From: an archaeon GW2011_AR15
GTDB taxonomy: Archaea; Nanobdellota; Nanobdellia; Woesearchaeales; GW2011-AR15
Assembly (NCBI GenBank): GCA_000830295.1
Contig: CP010425.1
Span: forward strand, 576,001-640,000
Direction: 5' to 3'
Length of the DNA stretch: 64,000 nt
Shown here: piece after piece, positions 1-59,652 of the stretch
Layout: the number at the start of each line of letters is the position of its first letter
Position numbering within the stretch: the first letter of the stretch is position 1
Position numbers and translations under genes: made by a program
Notes under the pieces: generated by a model
What the model was told of the DNA's origin: nothing
The model's input: the letters and a program-made list of their open reading frames with translations, nothing else
Database searches by the model: none

Positions 1-2303
1 TGGAGTTTTTCAAAATAGTTCTTTGAATAGGCATATGTAAGCACCTCAAAATAATCTGCCTTTGTTTTTTCTGAGAGTTCCCCAGAATCATGCCAGATGT
101 AATACAGGTTTTCAGAAATATTGTAGCCCTTCATTCCGTAAAATACCGCATCAAAATCATCTGTCCATGCTATTGCATTATAATTTTCAACTGCACCATA
201 CAGTCCCGGTTCATCAGTAAAGAACCCGACGATGGTTGTTCCGAAATATTCAGGAAACCTCTTGTAATATTCCTCATAAGTTGTTTCTATAAAAAGCTCT
301 GTTGTCTCGGGATCAAGAAGATCAACATATTCTTCTCCGGTGGTTTCAGTCCTGTAATTTGCATAATCTTTATAGAAGATTACGGCGTTAGAATTTATTT
401 CGAAGTTGCAATAATCTTCCGCGCAACTGTCCTTTCCTATAACTTTTATATCTGTAATATCTGTTACATCAAGAATAACTTCAATCATGCTCTTATCAGT
501 ATTAATATCTTTCAGATATATGCTTCCGCCCTCAACAATTTCAATATTGAGGTTCTTTGCCCGTAAATCATAATCCCCTTCGAGAACTTTTCCTCCGGCT
601 CTGCCGCTAGGCCAGTCAAATTCGTCATATATCCAAGCCCGCATACCTCTTTTTTCAAGCTCTTTCAGGGCATAGCCGACGAAGTAAAACCATTCCTCTG
701 ACAAGTATTCCTGTTCGAGTCCTGTTCTGGCATGTATAATAACCTCGCTTATCTCTATATCCTGCATCAGCTCAATCTGTCTTGTTATTTCACCTTCTGC
801 AAGGTTTCCGTTCCAGAACCAGTACGGTATGATTTTAGAAGGAGTATAGTTCACAGGCTGCCTTATTATCTCATAGACCATTATATCCCCAAACTCCTCC
901 GCCAGCATCAGTCTTGTGTCTTTGAAAAGCAATCTGAAGCATTCTTCATTTTCAAAGTCCTTTTCTGTTAAGACATATTTTATATGCTTTTCAATTTCCC
1001 AATATCTATAATCTTTCCAGTCATCTCTCATTAAAACCTTTGAGTAATTCAGTGTGCTGCTGTTGCAGAAAGTTGCAAAATTCAGTGTTCTTCCTTTTTT
1101 CCCGGAAAGCCAATAAAGTCCTTCATTCCAGCCATAATAATAGAATGATTGATTTTCTTCTAGATTATCGGAAAGGAATTCAGTGATTTTATTTTGCTCT
1201 TCTAGAGAACTGAAAGGACCAAACTCCAGCTCGATTGAATCCACATTTAAATTTGGATATAAAACTACAGAAGAAGATATTGTTAGTATCAGAGTAAATA
1301 CAAGCCCGGCAACAAATATTTTTTCTTTAATGAAATGCCTCGCCAGATTTGCAGAAATAAGTGCCAGCAGAGGAACAATATTTAGGATATAATGGCCATA
1401 TGTCGGAAGCACCAAGCTAAATAGAAGATACATAATGCAGAATAATGAGATTAATGAATAGGGGGCTTTCAATTCCCTGCGCTTTAAATATGAAAACAGA
1501 GTAATAAAGATGAATATGGAAGACTGGAGCAAGAACAGTGGGATATACGAAGGCTGCACATTATGCTGGTAGGGTATGTTCAGGTACCAAATTCTAGTTG
1601 CCTCAAAAATACCCGCTGCTCTCTCGATTAAGTTGAAATTATATATATATAATAAACTGGCAAAAGACATGGCGAATAAAGCAAAGATTCCAGTTATCAG
1701 CGGCACATATGCATCTTTTCTTCTTATTGCAAAAAGATAAATTATGTGGAACAGGCTTAGATATATTACCCGCGGATCTGAGAATATTGCCAGAAAATAC
1801 ACAATACTAGCTATGATGAGGTCAACTTTTTTCCTGCCTGCAAGGTATTTATTGAGAAAATACAGGCTTGAAGTGAAGAATAGTATATAGACGAGGCCGA
1901 CTTTATTCAGGAAACCGTGATAAAATGGAATTGCCATAAGAACAGCAAAAATACCGCCTGCAAGATATGTCTCTTTTCTGTTTTTTGAAAACTGATATGA
2001 AATAAGCACGATAAAAATGAAGCATAGCAGATAAAGAAGAAACCCATATAGTCTGTAAAATAAAAAAGAGTGGTTCAGGATAAACAATGGCAGCATATAT
2101 ACGGCATAGACTATGGGTGATTTGTCGAATAACCCTGTTAGAGGTGATGAACTCAGATTGTCTTTCATATACTCTGAGAATGAAACAATCACGCCCTCAT
2201 CAATTTCCATTGGCGTAATTAGCCACATGGATCTCAGTAGGATTGCAAACAGCAAGAGCAGGATAAACTGCTTTGTAAAAAATAGTTTTTTCAGCTCCCT
2301 CAT
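1..2303 (-). CDS. Membrane glycosyltransferase (GT-C, ArnT/PMT-like) fused to a GH106-like glycoside hydrolase domain; runs off the window edge
   Basis: Missing from the ORF track because there is no stop in the window. Manual translation from ATG 2303: MRELKKLFF..MEIDEG..DKSPIVY plus many TM helices, then in the same frame PYWFWNG..IHARTG..WIYDEFDWPSGRAGG..YVDLLDP..GFFTDEPG. Confidence 0.8.
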   Translation of the reverse strand, partial: MRELKKLFFTKQFILLLLFAILLRSMWLITPMEIDEGVIVSFSEYMKDNLSSSPLTGLFDKSPIVYAVYMLPLFILNHSFLFYRLYGFLLYLLCFIFIVLISYQFSKNRKETYLAGGIFAVLMAIPFYHGFLNKVGLVYILFFTSSLYFLNKYLAGRKKVDLIIASIVYFLAIFSDPRVIYLSLFHIIYLFAIRRKDAYVPLITGIFALFAMSFASLLYIYNFNLIERAAGIFEATRIWYLNIPYQHNVQPSYIPLFLLQSSIFIFITLFSYLKRRELKAPYSLISLFCIMYLLFSLVLPTYGHYILNIVPLLALISANLARHFIKEKIFVAGLVFTLILTISSSVVLYPNLNVDSIELEFGPFSSLEEQNKITEFLSDNLEENQSFYYYGWNEGLYWLSGKKGRTLNFATFCNSSTLNYSKVLMRDDWKDYRYWEIEKHIKYVLTEKDFENEECFRLLFKDTRLMLAEEFGDIMVYEIIRQPVNYTPSKIIPYWFWNGNLAEGEITRQIELMQDIEISEVIIHARTGLEQEYLSEEWFYFVGYALKELEKRGMRAWIYDEFDWPSGRAGGKVLEGDYDLRAKNLNIEIVEGGSIYLKDINTDKSMIEVILDVTDITDIKVIGKDSCAEDYCNFEINSNAVIFYKDYANYRTETTGEEYVDLLDPETTELFIETTYEEYYKRFPEYFGTTIVGFFTDEPGLYGAVENYNAIAWTDDFDAVFYGMKGYNISENLYYIWHDSGELSEKTKADYFEVLTYAYSKNYFEKL

Positions 2304-4450: not shown

Positions 4451-4551
4451 TAATGGAGGCGTAGTATAACCAAGGCCAACTGATAATGTCGGTTGACACC
4501 ATAGTGGGTTTCGCTACGCTCAAGCCCACATAACGGGGACGTAGTACAACC
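4451..4551 (+). mobile_element. Two-hairpin element copy A with duplication of the tRNA-Trp 5' end
   Basis: TAATGGAGGCGTAGTATAACC (4451-4471) vs TAACGGGGACGTAGTACAACC (4531-4551), 17/21 identical; between them CAACTGA..TCGGTTG and GTGGGTTT-CGCTACGCTC-AAGCCCAC hairpins. Confidence 0.75.
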
Positions 4552-4663
4552 TGGCTAGTATAAGCGGCTCCAGTCATGGAGCGATGAGGCGTAAGCCGAT
4601 GACATGCAGATAAAAGTTCCGGGAAGTAACCGCTGGATCGGGGTTCAAATCCCTGCGTCCCCA
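4535..4663 (+). tRNA. tRNA-Trp(CCA) with 55-nt intron (4574-4628)
   Basis: GGGGACG/CGTCCCC acceptor, AGCGG/CCGCT anticodon stem, CT-CCA-G loop, TTCAAAT T-loop. Confidence 0.92.
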
Positions 4664-4758
4664 CCTTATTTTTTTCGTTCTGTTAACTCGTTAACAGAAC
4701 TGGATTTGTTTCCCTCAAGGCTTTTTTAAAGGCTTGGTGAGCATCCCTGCGTCCCCAC
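4649..4758 (-). mobile_element. Two-hairpin element copy B with duplication of the tRNA-Trp 3' end
   Basis: ATCCCTGCGTCCCCAC exact at 4649-4664 and 4743-4758; between them a T-tract, a perfect 11-bp hairpin (4677-4700), TGTTT and a CAAGGCTTT/AAAGGCTTG hairpin. Confidence 0.75.
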
Positions 4759-4805
4759 TTTTACTTATAGGAAATATTTTAACCAAGACCGTATTTTTGT
4801 TTAAC

Positions 4806-8860: not shown

Positions 8861-9378
8861 TCTATTCCTTTAGAGGATAATCTCTTTTTCATTGAATCTA
8901 AATGGTCATTACCAAGTATTACATATACCTTTTTAATGCTTTCTTTTAAACAGTCTTTACTGATTTCTTCAATCATTGCAGTTTCTCTTTTTTTTATGAA
9001 ATATTCTTCAAAAACAGGATTGTTAGTATTATTAGACCCTGTAGTTGCCATCCTAAAGAGATCTTTTATATTGGAATCCCTATAGAATTGCTTTGCTAAT
9101 TTTATACCTTTTATATCTATATATTTGAATTTAAAACCCTCTTTTTTTAGATATTCTGTCAGGTGATAGAATTCATAAAATCTGGTCTTTTTTAATCCAA
9201 AAATCCCACTAAAAAATCTGGCAGTTATGGTCTTTCTCCGGTGTTTTTTGTATCTTAACATATCATATTCAAGCAAAATAAGAGCATTTTTTGCATTAGA
9301 GTTATTAAGAATAGTTTTTACTTTTTGAAAAGAGGTTGGGTTATTATGCTTAACCCCCATGATAATAATCTTACTCAT
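8845..9378 (-). CDS. Hypothetical protein, possibly a short TraB/GumN(Tiki)-like fold
   Basis: IIMGVKH..LLEY..RETAM..VILGNDHL pattern. Confidence 0.5.
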   Translation of the reverse strand: MSKIIIMGVKHNNPTSFQKVKTILNNSNAKNALILLEYDMLRYKKHRRKTITARFFSGIFGLKKTRFYEFYHLTEYLKKEGFKFKYIDIKGIKLAKQFYRDSNIKDLFRMATTGSNNTNNPVFEEYFIKKRETAMIEEISKDCLKESIKKVYVILGNDHLDSMKKRLSSKGIECTVL

Positions 9379-9606
9379 ATTAAGGCGACATAGTTTTTGT
9401 CTAGATTAATTTAACTGTTTTATGAAGGCTTTAAATTATATCTTCTCAGAATTCTGTTTCCAAAAACCTTTTCTTTAATGAAAGTAAAGACTCTTTCTCC
9501 GAAGCTTTTATACATGGCTATAATAAGAGTCTTCCCTTTTATATATTTTTCGGGCGGGAGCAGCTACCAAAAGGTTTTTTAAGCATTAGTACTTAATTTT
9601 AAGATT

Positions 9607-18667: not shown

Positions 18668-18761
18668 TGTAGTAAAATGAATATGGGCTTGAGCGGAGCG
18701 AAACCTATTTGTTTCCGCCAACGCTTTCCAAAAGGGTTGGTGTAATCCTCCTCAGGGGCTT
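18651..18761 (-). mobile_element. Two-hairpin element copy C with duplication of the tRNA-Thr 3' end
   Basis: AATCCTCCTCAGGGGCTT exact at 18651-18668 and 18744-18761; TGGGCTTGAGCGGAGCGAAACCTA, TGTTTC, CCAACGCTTTCCAAAAGGGTTGG. Confidence 0.8.
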
Positions 18762-18852
18762 TCCACCAGGAACTGGGACTGAGCAGAGCGAATGTCGCAC
18801 ATGTTTCGTTCAACCCTTTCCTAAAGGGTTGGTGGGATTCAACTCAGGGGCC
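18762..18852 (-). mobile_element. Two-hairpin element copy D with a degenerate tRNA-Thr 3' remnant
   Basis: TGGGACTGAGCAGAGCGAATGTCGCAC, TGTTTC, CAACCCTTTCCTAAAGGGTTGG, then GGATTCAACTCAGGGGC. Confidence 0.75.
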
Positions 18853-23507: not shown

Positions 23508-25229
23508 ATGTCTGACCTTCTTAAGGACGTGATGAAGAGGTCAATAGACAGTGAGTTCTACAGCCCATTCCCCAAAGGCTACAGGCCCGGCAGGACAAAG
23601 TATATTGTTGTATTCGGCACAGTGATATCAGGAATAGGCAAGGGCATTTTTGCAGGTTCGCTTGGGAAGCTGCTGAGGTATAAGGGATTCACGATTTCCC
23701 CCATAAAGTTTGACGGCTACCTCAACCAGGATGCAGGCACGCTTAATCCATACAGGCACGGGGAGGTCTTTGTGCTTGAGGACGGCACAGAATCAGACAT
23801 GGACCTCGGCACATACGAGAGATTCCTTGACATTAATCTTACAAAAGACAACTACATCACAAACGGCAAGCTTTTCCAGGAGATACTGAATAAGGAGAGG
23901 AGAGGGGATTACCTTGGCAGGGATGTGCAGGTCATTCCCCATGTTACAGGAGAGATAAAGCTGTTTCTGAGAAAGCTGGCTGTAAAGTCAAAATCTGATA
24001 TTGTCTTGTTTGAAGTCGGCGGTACAGTAGGGGATCTGGAAAGCATGTTCTGCATAGAGGCAGTAAGGCAGCTGATGTATGAGGAAGGAAAGGAGAATGT
24101 CTGCGCAATAGCAGTCACATATATCATGGAGCCGGGGTTTTTGGGGGAGCAGAAAAGCAAAGCAGCCCAGCTTGGCATAAAGAGCCTGCTTTCAAGCGGA
24201 ATCCAGCCCGACATAATCGCATGCAGGGCAAAAAATGAGGTTACGGAAAAAATAAGGCAGAAAATAAGCCTGTATTCCAATGTAGAGCTTCGAGATGTCC
24301 TTAGCATCCCTGATGTCGGAAGCATTTATTTTGTTCCTGAGATGATAAGGAAGACAGGAGTTGCTGAAAGCGTGATGAAGAAGCTGAAGCTTGGCAGCAG
24401 GATATCAAAAAAAGAAGAAGAAAGCAAATGGCAGAAATGGTCTAAGTTTACAGGCAGGATAAAAAACCCGAAAAACAGGGTTGTTATAGGCATGTTCGGG
24501 AAATATACCAATCTAAGGGACTCTTATGCCAGCATACTGAAGGCGCTGGAGCATGCAGGAGCTAATCTTGACACTGCAGTTGAAATAAAATGGATAGAGA
24601 CAACAGATATTGAAGAAGGGAAACTTAAAGTTGAAGAGGCCCTGAAAGGCATTGACGGCGCGCTTATAGCTCCAGGATTCGGGAAGAGAGGGACAGAAGG
24701 CAAGATTGCCAGCATAAAATACATCAGGCAAAAAAATATACCCTATCTCGGAGTCTGTTACGGCATGCAGATGGCCATAATAGAGTTCGCAAGGAATGTC
24801 TGCGGGCTTAAGGATGCTAACTCGACAGAGATAGATAGCAGGACGAGGCACCAGGTTATTGACATACTGCCCGAGCAGAAGAAGATTGAAGGATTAGGGG
24901 GAAACATGAGGCTGGGCGCAAAAGAAGTTTTAGTAAAGAAAGGCACAATGGCATATGAGCTCTATGGCAGAAAGAAGATGATAAAGGAAAGGTTCAGGCA
25001 CAGATATGAAGTAAACCCAGAGTATATCCCCCTGCTGGCGAAGAAAGGCATGGTTTTTTCAGGCAAGCATCCTGAGTATGACATAATGCAGATAATGGAG
25101 CTTCCGGGGAAGAGATTCTTTGTCGGCAGCCAGTTCCACCCCGAATTCACATCTAAATTACTCCATCCCAACCCTCTCTACCTCGGTTTTGTCAGGGCGG
25201 CTCTTGGATCGGGCCTCAGTAAACTATAA
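23508..25229 (+). CDS. pyrG: CTP synthase
   Basis: SGIGKG, DAGTLNPYRHGEVFV, GVCYGMQ, QFHPEF. Confidence 0.97.
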   Translation: MSDLLKDVMKRSIDSEFYSPFPKGYRPGRTKYIVVFGTVISGIGKGIFAGSLGKLLRYKGFTISPIKFDGYLNQDAGTLNPYRHGEVFVLEDGTESDMDLGTYERFLDINLTKDNYITNGKLFQEILNKERRGDYLGRDVQVIPHVTGEIKLFLRKLAVKSKSDIVLFEVGGTVGDLESMFCIEAVRQLMYEEGKENVCAIAVTYIMEPGFLGEQKSKAAQLGIKSLLSSGIQPDIIACRAKNEVTEKIRQKISLYSNVELRDVLSIPDVGSIYFVPEMIRKTGVAESVMKKLKLGSRISKKEEESKWQKWSKFTGRIKNPKNRVVIGMFGKYTNLRDSYASILKALEHAGANLDTAVEIKWIETTDIEEGKLKVEEALKGIDGALIAPGFGKRGTEGKIASIKYIRQKNIPYLGVCYGMQMAIIEFARNVCGLKDANSTEIDSRTRHQVIDILPEQKKIEGLGGNMRLGAKEVLVKKGTMAYELYGRKKMIKERFRHRYEVNPEYIPLLAKKGMVFSGKHPEYDIMQIMELPGKRFFVGSQFHPEFTSKLLHPNPLYLGFVRAALGSGLSKL

Positions 25230-40336: not shown

Positions 40337-41014
40337 ATGGACAGGGAGCAGCTTCTGGCAGTGTATAATGTGAGGAGAGACAGGATAAAGTCAAGGCTAG
40401 GTGAGTTTACGCGATTCTACAATGAGCCTGTCTCATGGTTTTATGAGGAGAAAAGCATGGTATTGAAGCCTGTTGACAGAGACCATAATGAAAGGATATT
40501 TGAGGAGCTCTGCTTCTGCCTTATGACTGCCAACACCTCAGCAGAGATGGGGCTGAAAGGCGTAGATGGCATAAGAAAGATACTTTTTACAGGCTCTCTG
40601 GAAGATATACAGCTGGCGCTTGCTGATGCAGGATACAGGTATCCCAACAAAAGGGCAGAGTATATTATCGAAGCGAGAGAAAGGTTTTCAGATGTAAGGG
40701 AGCTTGTTGAAAGCCATGAGGACAAAAAGAAGCTCAGGGAGCATCTTGCAGAGAATGTGAAGGGTTTGGGATACAAGGAAGCCAGCCATTTCCTTAGGAA
40801 TATAGGGGTTTTCGGGCTGGCAATACTTGACAAGCACATCCTCAGGACAATGCATGAGCATGGTGTGATTGAAGGGCTGCCAAAATCGCTGAACAGGAAA
40901 AATTATTTAGATATAGAAGAAAAATTTATTAAGTTTGCAGATGAGCTTGAGATAAACATGGACGAGCTCGACCTCCTGCTGTGGTCAATGAAGAACGGCA
41001 GGATTTTGAAATAG
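40337..41014 (+). CDS. ogg: 8-oxoguanine DNA glycosylase/AP lyase (archaeal Ogg)
   Basis: FEELCFCLMTAN, VKGLGYKEASHFLRN, AILDKHIL. Confidence 0.93.
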   Translation: MDREQLLAVYNVRRDRIKSRLGEFTRFYNEPVSWFYEEKSMVLKPVDRDHNERIFEELCFCLMTANTSAEMGLKGVDGIRKILFTGSLEDIQLALADAGYRYPNKRAEYIIEARERFSDVRELVESHEDKKKLREHLAENVKGLGYKEASHFLRNIGVFGLAILDKHILRTMHEHGVIEGLPKSLNRKNYLDIEEKFIKFADELEINMDELDLLLWSMKNGRILK

Positions 41015-41015
41015 C

Positions 41016-41166
41016 ACGGTAGTGGTCTAACGGCATGACACGACCCTCCCAACCTTTTAAGAAAAGGTTGGCGAAAACAGGTGGGTTTCTTCACCTTGTT
41101 CGTCAAGCCCACATCAAAAAAAGGGAGAGTGAGGTCGATATCCGGGTTCAATTCCCGGCTACCGTA
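41016..41166 (+). tRNA. tRNA-Gly(CCC) with 80-nt intron/insertion (41052-41131)
   Basis: ACGGTAG/CTACCGT acceptor, CGACC/GGTCG anticodon stem, CT-CCC-A loop, CCGGG-TTCAATT-CCCGG. Confidence 0.85.
41049..41122 (+). mobile_element. Two-hairpin element copy F inside the tRNA-Gly anticodon loop
   Basis: CCAACCTTTTAAGAAAAGGTTGG-CGAAAACA-GGTGGGTTTC..TCAAGCCCACAT-CAAAAAAA, colinear with the reverse complement of copy C. Confidence 0.8.
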
Positions 41167-41220
41167 TTTTTTCTAATTCAATAGATTTTAATACTTAAAT
41201 TGTTTTAAAACTGCCCAGAG

Positions 41221-41724
41221 ATGGAAACAAAAGGGTTTTCACTGTGGCTTATGCCCGAAGGCGAGCAGTACAAAAGATTCAGCGGGATAATTTCTGATTT
41301 AGGTAAAAGATACAAAGGGCCAAGATTTGAACCGCATATAACTCTTTTAGGAGATATAGAAAGGGGTAAGGAAGATGTATTCAACAGGGCAAACCAGCTG
41401 GCGCAGGTTGTAAAGCCCTTTAATGTAAAGCTTGACAGGACAGAATACTCCAATGAATATTTTAAATGTGTTTTTGCCAGGGCAGAAGAAGAATACGAAT
41501 TCATGAAAGCAGGGGATATTGCCAGAAGGTTTTTCTATATGGAATCCCAGAAATTCATGCCTCACCTGAGCCTGCTGTACGGGAATTACAGCGAAGATAT
41601 AAAGAAAGAGATTGTCTCGAAACTGAAAATAAATGAGGAAGTGCCAGTGAATTGCCTGCATGTTGCCGAAACAAAGGGCGAGCCAGAAGAATGGAAGATA
41701 CTGAGGAAAATACCTTTCAGATAA
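41221..41724 (+). CDS. 2H phosphoesterase (cyclic phosphodiesterase-like)
   Basis: FSLWLMP, FEPHITL and FMPHLSL motifs. Confidence 0.9.
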   Translation: METKGFSLWLMPEGEQYKRFSGIISDLGKRYKGPRFEPHITLLGDIERGKEDVFNRANQLAQVVKPFNVKLDRTEYSNEYFKCVFARAEEEYEFMKAGDIARRFFYMESQKFMPHLSLLYGNYSEDIKKEIVSKLKINEEVPVNCLHVAETKGEPEEWKILRKIPFR

Positions 41725-59408: not shown

Positions 59409-59420
59409 ATAGTATAGAAG

Positions 59421-59529
59421 ATGAAAAAAGCCCAGATAGAACAAGGTTTTAATAAAACCTTGAGCAAAACAAGTGCGGCATTCGCTTAAAGCTCAGCCCC
59501 ACAAAAAAATGAAAAAAGCCCAGATAGAA
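59421..59529 (+). mobile_element. Two-hairpin element copy H with 21-bp gene-start duplication
   Basis: ATGAAAAAAGCCCAGATAGAA at 59421 and 59509; CAAGGTTTT-AAT-AAAACCTTG, AAAACAA, GTGCGGCATTCGCT..GCTCAGCCCCAC, A tract. Confidence 0.82.
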
Positions 59530-59652
59530 ATGCAGTTCAACTATATCAGCTGGTTACGCCCGGCTGGCATGCAAAAGCAGGTTATATCTCGCCCTGCTCG
59601 ATATAACTTACTACCAAAATGAAAAAAGCCCAGATAGAAATGCAGTTCAACT
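59509..59652 (+). mobile_element. Two-hairpin element copy I with 34-bp gene-start duplication
   Basis: ATGAAAAAAGCCCAGATAGAAATGCAGTTCAACT at 59509 and 59619; CAGCTGG..CCGGCTG and GTTATATC-TCGCCCTGCTC-GATATAAC hairpins. Confidence 0.8.

Follow-up and report, generated by a model that had tools for sequence, protein, structure and literature searches.

The tRNA-Gly(CCC) gene and its intron

The stretch of DNA analysed here (the window) comprises 64,000 nt, positions 576,001-640,000 of contig CP010425.1 (GCA_000830295.1), from the 1.16-Mb genome of the archaeon GW2011_AR15 (G000 below). An intact tRNA-Gly(CCC) gene lies on the forward strand at 41016-41166 and scores 45.9 bits against the Rfam tRNA family RF00005; at the Rfam gathering thresholds, the window matches four tRNAs alone and no other family. 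ARAGORN missed the gene when run without its intron option and, with the option on, reported tRNA-Gly(ccc) with an 80-nt intron from gene position 37, i(37,80). The RF00005 alignment has 83 unshown positions within the anticodon loop, and the two methods agree with the initial annotation, which had placed an 80-nt insert at 37/38. The other introns that ARAGORN reports in G000 are 12-64 nt long. The exons had also been described as paired throughout, including an A1-U72 pair, and the Rfam alignment bears this out for the acceptor stem (7/7 standard pairs, A1-U72 among them), with one D-stem pair marked as non-standard. The features are collected in Table 1.

Table 1. Positions of the parts of the tRNA-Gly(CCC) gene and of module copies in the window
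Feature	Position	Strand	Evidence
tRNA-Gly(CCC) exon 1, A1 to A37, anticodon CCC 41048-41050	41016..41051	+	Rfam, ARAGORN -i, sequence
80-nt intron, canonical 37/38	41052..41131	+	ARAGORN i(37,80); BHB scan p=36, L=80
tRNA-Gly(CCC) exon 2, A38 to discriminator A73	41132..41166	+	Rfam, ARAGORN, sequence
Match to covariance model R1 (7 non-intronic copies)	41040..41118	+	56.0 bits, E 6.8e-12 in 3 kb
Hairpin 1, perfect 10-bp stem CCAACCUUUU / AAAAGGUUGG, loop AAG	41049..41071	+	inverted-repeat search, family covariation
Single-stranded linker CGAAAACAG, family consensus GGAAACA	41072..41080	+	family alignments, cmsearch
Hairpin 2, GUGGGUUU ... AAGCCCAC	41081..41112	+	cmsearch alignment, family covariation
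tRNA-specific intron tail, outside the family unit	41113..41131	+	BHB scan, constrained fold
Copy (variant hairpin 1), sense, ahead of a tRNA; a diverged duplicate of tRNA bases 1-17 comes before it	4467..4535	+	covariance model
Copy (variant hairpin 2), antisense, behind the tRNA that follows 4467..4535; 16-nt duplicate of tRNA 3' end	4681..4746	-	covariance model
Copy behind tRNA-Thr(CGU), antisense, then 18-nt duplicate of tRNA 3' end	18677..18749	-	covariance model, sequence
Second, older tandem copy behind tRNA-Thr(CGU), diverged duplicate of tRNA 3' end	18767..18841	-	covariance model, sequence
Copy at the start of a 326-aa gene, 21-nt flanking duplicate includes ATG	59432..59508	+	covariance model, sequence

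Canonical archaeal BHB introns at 37/38 are cut out by EndA and the exons are joined by RtcB. Both enzymes are encoded in G000, EndA by a single gene (184 aa, at about 473271-473825 of G000, PF02778 and PF01974) and RtcB with a score of 584 bits. Since an A stands on either side of the junction, the intron boundary could move by one base; the BHB register selects cuts at 41051/41052 and 41131/41132. In this register the anticodon stem (h, 5 bp) is followed by a central helix with three of four pairs (C-G, U-A, C-G and a C.A mismatch) and by an outer helix (h') of 6 bp, CCUUUU with AAAGGG, with 3-nt bulges CA/A and UG/A. The tail of the intron supplies one side of this structure: after an A-run come the AAAGGG strand (41120-41125), the AGAG strand of the central helix (41126-41129) and the bulge UG/A (41130-41132). 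Three of four central pairs are also what the BHB scan finds in 10/25 intron tRNAs of G000. The cloverleaf constrained to the near-BHB folds at -50.3 kcal/mol, compared with -52.0 kcal/mol for the MFE structure, which locks the anticodon into hairpin 1. This 1.7 kcal/mol cost agrees with the earlier description of a near-BHB with a C-A mismatch that competes with a palindrome. The intron resembles a canonical BHB intron in its position, its predicted 3-nt bulges, a predicted central helix formed with loop bases 32-35 and the presence of the enzymes, and differs by the C.A mismatch and by an outer helix that competes with a stronger 10-bp hairpin holding two anticodon bases. The element does, as proposed, sit where splicing could remove it, at the canonical position and within a predicted relaxed BHB.

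DNA contigs from four metagenome runs aligned to the locus at 80% likeness. One of them, at a depth of 2.8, joins 41051 to 41132 and skips the 80 nt; others carry 21-37 different letters where the intron stands. At this likeness the contigs probably come from related organisms, and we therefore did not count them as polymorphism of GW2011_AR15. Among sequencing runs recorded as RNA, none was found to contain the locus.

The intron core is a member of a two-hairpin family

The initial annotation had described the intron as colinear with repeats elsewhere in the DNA, and the similarity is far beyond chance. HMMs of 22 and of 11 non-intronic copies match the intron at E 1.4e-8 and 3.2e-12, respectively. 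A covariance model of 7 non-intronic copies, trained without the intron, scores it at 56.0 bits (E 2.5e-9 genome-wide, the E-values of this model being rough). Among the 27 matches of the model in G000, the intron ranks 8, after the 7 training sequences alone, and is the best non-training match. Judged by these comparisons, a copy of a module without coding capacity, two hairpins joined by a linker, makes up about 68 nt of the 80-nt intron.

Hairpin 1 pairs 41049-41058 with 41062-41071. Its first base is the second of the anticodon, so that the exon bases C35, C36 and A37 belong to it, as expected from the earlier remark that a perfect 10-bp hairpin begins inside the anticodon. The linker, GGAAACA, is the best-conserved part of the module, and across the family hairpin 2 is made of at least three types of sequence that are unrelated to one another. 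In a hand-registered alignment of the 7 sequences, on which the covariance model is also based, 87.1% of cells are paired and 9/20 pairs have changed on both sides (5/10 in hairpin 1 and 4/10 in hairpin 2), values that 0/500 shuffles equalled. From the 22 copies as first aligned by MAFFT, RNAalifold predicted zero pairs because the hairpins there are out of register. A long-range helix between the 3' arm of hairpin 1 and the 3' side of hairpin 2, suggested by the constrained fold, was 67.9% paired and equalled by 79/500 shuffles, and was dropped.

The edges of the module relate differently to the two splice sites. Its 5' edge lies 1-3 nt from the 5' splice site in 7/7 intronic copies, all of them in sense orientation. 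In tRNA-Gly(CCC) the HMM and covariance-model matches end at 41116-41118, and the family unit ends 19 nt short of the 3' splice site. A repeat finder detected no direct repeats flanking the intronic module, and the weak echo AAGAAAAGG / AAAAAAAGG around it was matched by 359/2000 shuffles and is not significant; the earlier statement that no duplication is visible was thus correct.

Most copies read elsewhere in the genome carry target duplications

The 27 matches in G000 comprise 13 antisense copies 3' of tRNAs, 2 sense copies 5' of tRNAs, 2 sense copies in introns and 10 elsewhere, meaning not near an ARAGORN tRNA; one of the sense 5' copies had been assigned automatically to the 3' side of the upstream tRNA-Ala. 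There are thus 25 non-intronic matches to 2 intronic ones, and 22 to 2 among the copies that were aligned. The copy at 18677..18749 is probably the one from which the initial annotation had started ('copy C'). Those copies away from tRNAs that were read lie mostly at the starts of protein genes, and most of the non-intronic copies read are flanked by direct duplications of 12-42 nt of the gene end. At the start of a dnaK-like gene, the duplication is 39 nt long, the edges of the inserted unit are exactly hairpin 1 and hairpin 2, and the site is single-copy in 5/5 relatives read. From their sequences, these footprints support the view that the module family behaves as mobile DNA. By eye, we found no BHB whose splicing would remove gene-end copies from matching positions in the two duplicates, and the search for an exon-1 duplicate in the intron tails was unconvincing (3-7/15 positions matching).

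A source of mobilising activity was sought in several ways. Profile searches of G000 for RVT_1, Cas1 (PF01867), Y1_Tnp, the TnpB zinc-ribbon domain, DDE_Tnp_1 and rve were all negative, and tyrosine-recombinase matches were limited to one strong and one weak. RVT_1 was also absent from the matches in four further genomes of this genus that were searched; in the taxonomic family it occurs in 3/20 genomes, compared with 18/20 that have module matches at E <= 1e-3. At the 39 ARAGORN tRNAs of G000 there was no kilobase-sized partner element bounded by copies of the tRNA end, a 1502-nt candidate being merely the 3' end of a neighbouring tRNA-Glu. The spacers 3' of the module are A-rich (89 A in 168 nt, compared with 34 in 90 for 5' spacers, with imperfect automated boundaries), and the A-rich tail is missing from 2/5 young protein-gene copies. 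Retroposition, which A-rich 3' spacers and variable duplications would fit, is a minor possibility.

Compared with MITEs, REPs and other small non-autonomous repeats, the module is alike in being small, structured, non-coding and multi-copy and in duplicating its target. It lacks the hallmarks of MITEs or IS-derived repeats: the ends are two different hairpins and not terminal inverted repeats, the duplications vary from 12 to 42 nt with no fixed length, and the profile searches of G000 found no transposase partner. Integration of the casposon/Cas1 type targets the 3' ends of tRNAs, a preference that the module shares, in a genome without Cas1.

The module comes and goes among tRNA introns of relatives

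We read 15 orthologues of tRNA-Gly(CCC). The module is present in three of them (G000, G005 and G007), and the intron of G023 is a related one with two hairpins. At 37/38, six genes have short or different introns of 13-51 nt and five are intronless, one of the five with a T-loop insert. The suggestion that the intron was born from a mobile element therefore stands in part. Its core is a true family member; the birth was not fresh in G000, because the module intron is common to G005, of the same genus, and G007, of another genus. The distribution across these unrooted genomes suggests that the ancestral gene had a short intron or none and that the module is the derived state.

A1-U72 is kept in 15/15 orthologues, and there are compensatory changes in the acceptor and anticodon stems (e.g. 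CGACC/GGTCG and CCACC/GGTGG); the introns read all have a GGAG- or AGAG-type strand, then 2 nt, then A38. On this comparative evidence the gene is under constraint. The cost of the BHB fold is higher in G005 (6.5 kcal/mol) and G007 (4.8 kcal/mol), in both of which the outer helix is 1 bp only.

The module also forms introns of tRNA-Thr(UGU) and tRNA-Arg(UCG) in relatives. tRNA-Thr(UGU) was found in 16/20 genomes, where 8 genes are intronless, 3 have the full module, 2 have hairpin 1 only and 3 have other short introns. Within one genus, the presence or absence of the module is very unstable. Over 64 aligned columns, the module of G005-Gly is 93% identical to that of G004-Thr, and G000-Gly 87% identical to G005-Thr, while orthologues share 73% (G000-Gly and G005-Gly) or 66% (G004-Thr and G005-Thr). 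By these identities, module similarity does not track tRNA orthology. In nearest-neighbour comparisons, which rest on 36 short, related sequences, 2/6 intronic copies are closest to a non-intronic copy and 4/6 to an intronic one, the latter count being reached by 186/10000 label shuffles; spread from one intron to another may thus be a route of its own. As part of our overall reading, we think it probable that the module has been exchanged among tRNA-Gly(CCC), tRNA-Thr(UGU) and tRNA-Arg(UCG) introns in this archaeal family.

The two hairpin-1-only introns of tRNA-Thr(UGU) are 28 nt (G000) and 29 nt (G016) long, and in G000 hairpin 1 is exactly the outer helix of the BHB (h' = 9). The Gly and Thr introns within G000 share a 19/19 match. 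At the end of the 28-nt Thr intron stands the strand GGAGCA, whose better fit to Gly(CCC) than to Thr(UGU) hints that whole introns were transferred and not the module alone. In three tRNA-Thr(UGU) introns of relatives, the loop and 3' arm of hairpin 1 are repeated after hairpin 2 over 13-14 nt, repeats that 0, 26 and 21 of 2000 shuffles reached.

Alternative explanations

The most substantial alternative is that the intron came first. The family would then descend from a BHB intron, a short canonical one with hairpin 1 as its outer helix, and a composite intron (hairpin 1, linker and hairpin 2) would have been copied, via excised RNA or DNA, to tRNA loops and gene ends. In its favour are the constant 1-3 nt spacing of the module from the 5' splice site, the hairpin-1-only introns, the Gly-type GGAGCA end of the Thr intron in G000, the 4/6 intronic copies that are mutual nearest neighbours, and the repeats in the three Thr introns, which look as if the linker and hairpin 2 had entered a hairpin intron. 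What weighs against it is the extent of the unit: it ends 19 nt upstream of the 3' splice site, neither an intron tail nor a circle junction is ever seen in non-intronic copies, and the dnaK-like insertion is bounded exactly by the two hairpins. Intronic copies are also greatly outnumbered, and RVT_1 is scarce relative to the module. We consider this origin unlikely, and the early stop of the unit, the tail-less non-intronic copies and the ratio of 22 to 2 speak against the earlier suggestion that the family is seeded by excised introns.

Two further readings give the module or the gene a different standing. The module might be a functional structured RNA that is hosted in tRNA transcripts, freed by tRNA-processing enzymes and spread by selection and not by selfish mobility. 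A C/D box guide sits in the tRNA-Trp intron of Haloferax, and the covariation of both hairpins, the conserved linker and the clustering of copies at tRNA genes would fit such a role. However, 13/27 copies are antisense to the adjoining tRNA, so that the tRNA transcript would carry the module's complement; other copies stand in protein-gene starts with long target duplications, hairpin 2 varies in type, the window has no Rfam match beyond the tRNAs, and the module's presence is unstable in one genus. There seems to be a slim chance that this account is right. Alternatively, the element may have inactivated a tRNA-Gly(CCC) that was dispensable, leaving GGG to be read by tRNA-Gly(UCC), which, with tRNA-Gly(GCC), is also encoded in G000 (ARAGORN). 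The 3'-exon pattern of tRNA-Gly(CCC) was found in just 10/20 genomes of the family; these archaea may be able to do without the gene, and a dead copy could survive. The MFE fold, too, hides the anticodon. A pseudo-tRNA is nevertheless very improbable given intact exons, the persistence of the element-bearing gene across three genomes from two genera, where stem changes are compensatory and the GGAG/AGAG strand, 2-nt spacing and A38 are retained, and a BHB cloverleaf just 1.7 kcal/mol above the MFE.

A probable mobile module in a putatively spliceable intron

The explanation we favour, and hold to be probably correct, is that tRNA-Gly(CCC) is a working gene and that a mobile two-hairpin module has lodged in its spliceable intron, not that an excised intron seeded the family. 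The module is dispersed through this Woesearchaeote-type genome and its taxonomic family, and in this reading it inserts at gene ends and duplicates 12-42 nt of the target. In anticodon loops it forms the sense apical insert of a predicted BHB intron at the canonical position, leaving outside the module a short tRNA-specific tail with the outer-helix strand, the 4-nt strand that pairs with loop bases 32-35 and the 2-nt bulge. We propose that the module is tolerated in this gene thanks to a refolding of the pre-tRNA, in which the 10-bp hairpin 1 gives way to the relaxed BHB; the single EndA would then cut at the two predicted sites, and RtcB would join the exons. Our preferred route of entry, put forward tentatively, has the module arriving in a short hairpin intron that could already be spliced, with another copy of the module as the source for homology-assisted copying.

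More broadly, the module could possibly be a vehicle of tRNA-intron gain in DPANN-type archaea, copied into structured or terminal gene sites by an activity of no known transposase family and becoming a BHB intron where it comes to lie, in a tRNA loop, beside a strand that pairs with loop bases 32-35. A bolder variant of this idea would have the tRNA splicing enzymes or an RNA-templated repair step move the module.

Related sequences in introns of different tRNA species are known as transposed BHB introns of Thermoproteales, which imply copying between tRNA genes (Fujishima et al. 2010, Mol Biol Evol 27:2233, as summarised in PMC4033280; bioRxiv 10.64898/2026.10.13.758758). As far as those accounts extend, the module introns are alike in their occurrence in different tRNAs, the lack of an ORF and their (here predicted) removal by the protein splicing endonuclease; they differ in that the sequence they have in common exists as a dispersed repeat, too (25/27 matches in G000 outside introns, with 12-42-nt duplications), in that the intron core alone is shared and the tail is tRNA-specific, and in the DPANN-type lineage. 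In Caldiarchaeum subterraneum, a 1.8-kb integrating element that encodes a recombinase disrupts a tRNA gene (Sugahara et al. 2012, PMC3293823). The likeness lies in intron gain and partial tRNA copies tied to a mobile element and in population or lineage heterogeneity at one tRNA locus, whereas the module is ~65-75 nt, non-coding and has no partner gene that we could find in G000. A 2026 preprint describes the arrival of archaeal tRNA introns as an open question, and its census of Asgard genomes found no general route (bioRxiv 10.64898/2026.10.13.758758). Our literature search found no paper on such an element in both tRNA introns and gene ends; subscription journals and supplements may hold reports.

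Here, one tRNA intron is statistically tied to a dispersed element with classical insertion footprints, namely target duplications and sites that are single-copy in relatives, and this element comes, goes and is exchanged between the introns of three tRNA species over a genus-to-family range. Such a sequence-level look at the possible ways in which archaeal tRNA genes gain introns is rare, and it makes intron gain directly testable. The locus also indicates that a BHB intron can act as a safe harbour for selfish DNA. If the module does drive intron gain, it would provide a concrete, testable route by which archaeal tRNA introns arrive.

The intron core of tRNA-Gly(CCC) belongs to a dispersed repeat family

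The host genome is a single contig (1.158 Mb, G+C 42.5%). Rfam matched four tRNAs in the window, three of them with anticodon-loop insertions. In the tRNA-Gly(CCC) match (45.9 bits) every acceptor-stem pair is standard, including the A1-U72 that the initial annotation had singled out as unusual, and the D-stem has one non-standard pair. A default ARAGORN run did not call tRNA-Gly(ccc) at this position; with introns allowed it reported tRNA-Gly(ccc) with an 80-nt intron from gene position 37, in agreement with our reading of the sequence and with the insert at 37/38 originally proposed. (In this mode ARAGORN misnames some intron-containing tRNAs; e.g. a tRNA-Thr(CGU) in the window was labelled 'Phe'.) As also described initially, the first hairpin opens within the anticodon, with a perfect 10-bp stem, and a repeat search found no direct repeat flanking the insert.

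Related sequences turned up throughout the genome in initial searches with blastn and nhmmer. To avoid circularity, profiles were rebuilt without any copy from inside a tRNA intron. An HMM of 22 non-intronic copies (alignment A1) matched the tRNA-Gly(CCC) intron with E = 1.4e-8, and an HMM of 11 copies sharing a hairpin-2 type (A2) with E = 3.2e-12. A covariance model of seven well-registered non-intronic copies (A3) matched it with 56.0 bits, at E-values (rough, by the tool's own warning) of 2.5e-9 for the whole genome and 6.8e-12 in a 3-kb stretch; the intron ranked eighth of 27 matches, below only the seven training sequences. Covariation backs both model hairpins, with 87.1% of cells paired and both sides changed in 9/20 pairs; 0/500 shuffles reached the observed values, and slid controls pair at 29–50%. 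The similarity to the other copies is thus significant, given the covariance-model match and the covariation.

The family unit, or module, is about 65–75 nt long and has three parts: hairpin 1 (base CCAAC/GUUGG, upper stem U/A-rich), a single-stranded GGAAACA-like linker, and hairpin 2, of at least three sequence types. In the tRNA-Gly(CCC) intron the unit stops at about 41116-41118, so the last 13–19 nt (the tail) are tRNA-specific and lie outside the repeat.

Around the gene, leader and trailer prolong the acceptor stem as a 21-nt inverted repeat (76% complementary), which may be a mere effect of the A/T-rich flanks. Directly 3' lies a gene for a predicted 167-aa 2H-phosphoesterase (Pfam CPDase, 57 bits; also weak 2'-5' RNA ligase/LigT matches); a BLAST match in G005 lies in the same order. 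The substrates of this enzyme class are 2',3'-cyclic phosphate ends from tRNA splicing.

Positions of the features discussed (window coordinates unless stated)
Feature	Position	Strand	Remark
tRNA-Gly(CCC), Rfam match	41016-41166	+	
Exon 1	41016-41051	+	anticodon CCC 41048-41050; read from sequence
Intron	41052-41131	+	read from sequence
Exon 2	41132-41166	+	read from sequence
Hairpin 1 stem	41049-41058 with 41062-41071		
Covariance-model match	41040-41118		
Leader/trailer pairing	41002-41022 with 41159-41179		
2H-phosphoesterase gene	41221-41724		
tRNA with a copy on either side	4455-4760		
tRNA-Thr(CGU)	18584		
Triplicated gene start	59418-59652		
Family copies with nested inserts	24556-24684, 168682-168808		genome coordinates, outside window
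Second insert class	765286-765555, 770874, 170574, 1078713		genome coordinates, outside window
tRNA-Gly(CCC) with T-loop insert	about 87-250		G029 contig 17 (L018)
Copy between ~63-nt repeats	about 9300-9500		G010 contig 8 (L011/L073)

Copies elsewhere in the genome lie mostly at gene ends

We placed the 27 covariance-model matches in the host genome relative to ARAGORN tRNAs. Thirteen are antisense copies immediately 3' of a tRNA gene; two lie 5' and sense (one, between tRNA-Ala and tRNA-Thr, had been labelled 3' of tRNA-Ala by the script); two are sense within introns, namely Gly(CCC) and a hairpin-1-only remnant in Thr(UGU); and ten lie away from these tRNAs, the inspected ones mostly at protein-gene starts. 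Most non-intronic copies inspected are bordered by direct repeats of 12–42 nt that represent the adjacent gene's end: T-loop to trailer behind tRNAs and, before genes, a stretch that opens near the transcript start and takes in the ATG and the first codons. In every case the intact gene is on the hairpin-2 side. The last 16 bases are copied 44–86 nt downstream (≤2 mismatches) at 12/39 ARAGORN tRNAs. At a dnaK-like gene a perfect 39-nt duplicate brackets a 64-nt unit, hairpin 1 first and hairpin 2 last; the segment is single-copy in 5/5 relatives inspected (G001, G002, G004, G011 and G016), so the second copy arose from the target during insertion.

A gene for 326 aa (MKKAQIEMQFN..., N-terminus hydrophobic) has its start three times over. 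Starts 1 and 2 are separated by a family copy, with a 21-nt duplicate; an insert of 73 nt from another two-hairpin family separates the last two, with a 37-nt perfect duplicate. One tRNA gene (Arg(cct) with a 55-nt intron according to ARAGORN, a doubtful assignment) has family copies on both sides: the upstream one is sense and comes with a diverged duplicate of the tRNA's first 17 bases, the downstream one is antisense and comes with 16 nt duplicated from the tRNA's 3' end. Two family copies carry a hairpin-rich short insert nested in hairpin 1, with no visible duplication, suggesting that the loops of hairpins can also serve as targets for insertion. A second insert class (37–47 nt), accompanied by duplicates of tRNA ends, lies beside several tRNAs.

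The intron may be compatible with splicing

For the 151-nt precursor, the predicted minimum free energy structure (-52.0 kcal/mol, z = -2.99) forms hairpin 1 at the expense of the anticodon arm; when a full cloverleaf is forced into a bulge-helix-bulge (BHB), the energy is -50.3 kcal/mol, 1.7 above that minimum. The near-BHB of the initial annotation could be reconstructed as a relaxed motif, in which the anticodon stem has 5 bp, the central pairs are C-G/U-A/C-G/C.A, CCUUUU and AAAGGG form the outer helix, and the bulges are CA|A and UG|A. In the best register, central pairs number 4/4 in 14 of the 25 intron tRNAs of this genome, 3/4 in ten and 2/4 in one, so that the C.A mismatch is ordinary here. 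The genome encodes RtcB and a single EndA (184 aa, N-terminal and catalytic domains), whose domain architecture we take to be that of homotetrameric enzymes.

For the host's Thr(UGU) intron, the modelled outer helix (h') is hairpin 1 itself (h' = 9). In module-bearing introns a second, copy-like strand downstream is predicted to pair with the hairpin-1 5' arm to form this helix, which would make the remaining module an apical insert. The downstream strand clearly repeats the hairpin-1 loop and 3' arm in three Thr(UGU) introns (0, 26 and 21 of 2000 shuffles). By the same shuffle test the repeat was not significant in the Arg intron or in the three Gly introns.

The module varies between orthologous tRNAs

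The 3'-exon pattern of tRNA-Gly(CCC) was found in only 10/20 genomes of the taxonomic family. Among the matches listed, we compared 15 genes, the host's and 14 orthologues from related genomes, which are not independent samples (orthologue loci: L002, L005-L008, L012, L015, L017-L020, L022, L023 and L084); across the archaeal order 15/15 have A1-U72 in place of the usual G1-C72, with C2-G71 and G3-C70 kept. Compensatory changes occur in the acceptor stem (e.g. ACGGUAG/CUACCGU versus ACGGCUG/CAGCCGU) and the anticodon stem (e.g. CGACC/GGUCG versus CCACC/GGUGG). Judged by sequence, the gene family is functional and under constraint. Metagenome contigs matching the locus probably derive from relatives.

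At 37/38, module-bearing introns are found in the host (80 nt), G005 of the same genus (76 nt) and G007 of another genus (77 nt), and a related two-hairpin intron (66 nt) in G023 of another family. Other introns (13–51 nt) occupy the site in G002 (same genus), G008, G013, G017, G018 and G026; G015, G016, G034 and G040 are intronless. G029 is also intronless there and has a T-loop insert of about 95 nt with a related module (variant hairpin 1, ...CAAGCCCAC hairpin 2), the hairpin-1 3' arm being repeated near the end. The introns inspected end in a GGAG-/AGAG-like strand and two bases, followed by A38; in the model, the strand is the partner of loop bases 32-35, and the 3' bulge consists of the two bases.

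Model matches at E ≤ 1e-3 occur in 18/20 genomes of the family (1–14 per genome). Among the loci listed, 24 rows of nhmmer matches in relatives comprise four intronic sense copies (Thr(UGU) in G004 and G011, Gly(CCC) in G005, Arg(UCG) in G010), six antisense copies 3' of a tRNA, one sense copy 5' of a tRNA and 13 that are tRNA-free within 60 nt. The G010 genome also has a family copy between direct repeats of ~63 nt (~8 mismatches), the longest duplication seen among the copies inspected.

tRNA-Thr(UGU), located in 16/20 family genomes, is intronless in eight (four genera), has the full module in three (G004, 81 nt; G005, 86 nt; G011, 77 nt), hairpin 1 only in two (host, 28 nt; G016, 29 nt) and other short introns in three. 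Within the host's genus, G002 and G003 have no intron here, the host has hairpin 1 only, and G004 and G005 have the full module in two different subtypes. G005 thus carries the module in both Thr(UGU) and Gly(CCC). Over 64 columns, module identity is 93% for G005-Gly versus G004-Thr and 87% for host Gly versus G005-Thr, compared with 73% and 66% for the orthologous pairs (host Gly versus G005-Gly; G004-Thr versus G005-Thr). Identities running against orthology argue that different tRNA species have exchanged the module or acquired it anew; by this measure it is not merely inherited along with the host tRNA gene. Among 36 aligned copies, four of the six intronic ones have an intronic nearest neighbour (reached in 186/10 000 label shuffles) and the other two a gene-end copy, a pattern that is indicative only in such short, related sequences.

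Origin of the intronic copies

According to one preprint (bioRxiv 10.64898/2026.10.13.758758), tRNA introns are copied between tRNA genes in Thermoproteales, while for Asgard a general arrival route was not found and the question is open. PMC4033280 summarises Fujishima et al. 2010 on Thermoproteales tRNA introns, and PMC3293823 reports tRNA gene disruption by an integrating element in Caldiarchaeum subterraneum. A passage of bioRxiv 10.64898/2026.05.13.725050 contains nothing on such repeats. Literature searches turned up no account of a dispersed hairpin element common to gene ends and tRNA introns, though relevant tables may exist in preprint supplements.

The initial annotation offered two options, an element tolerated because it can be spliced out, or excised introns that seed the family. 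We favour the former, an element lodged in a spliceable intron, as rather probable, because non-intronic copies dominate and are without the tail, module-less orthologues are common and widespread, and a young insertion is a unit bounded by its two hairpins. An intron-first origin seems unlikely to us, even with the module's 5' edge coinciding with the splice site, the existence of introns of hairpin 1 alone, and the host's Thr(UGU) intron having a 3' end (GGAGCA) that suits the Thr(UGU) loop less well than that of Gly(CCC).

For a lodged element, several routes into introns can be considered. Variable duplications and A-rich 3' spacers (89/168 nt, versus 34/90 in 5' spacers, with imperfect automatic boundaries) recall target-primed retroposition, but the reverse transcriptase is missing, and we treat this as a minor idea. 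RVT_1 occurs in 3/20 family genomes and 0/5 of the host's genus; domain searches of the host genome found RVT_1, Cas1, Y1_Tnp, the TnpB domain, DDE_Tnp_1 and rve all absent. Two tyrosine-recombinase matches, a strong one and a weak one, were seen, and no candidate mobilising enzyme emerged from these searches. Other routes would be the transfer of whole introns, or insertion by an enzyme. The likeliest route, which we put forward tentatively, is that a short hairpin intron would exist first in the tRNA and the module would be copied into it, aided by homology to hairpin 1; such copying would account for the internal repeats in Thr(UGU).
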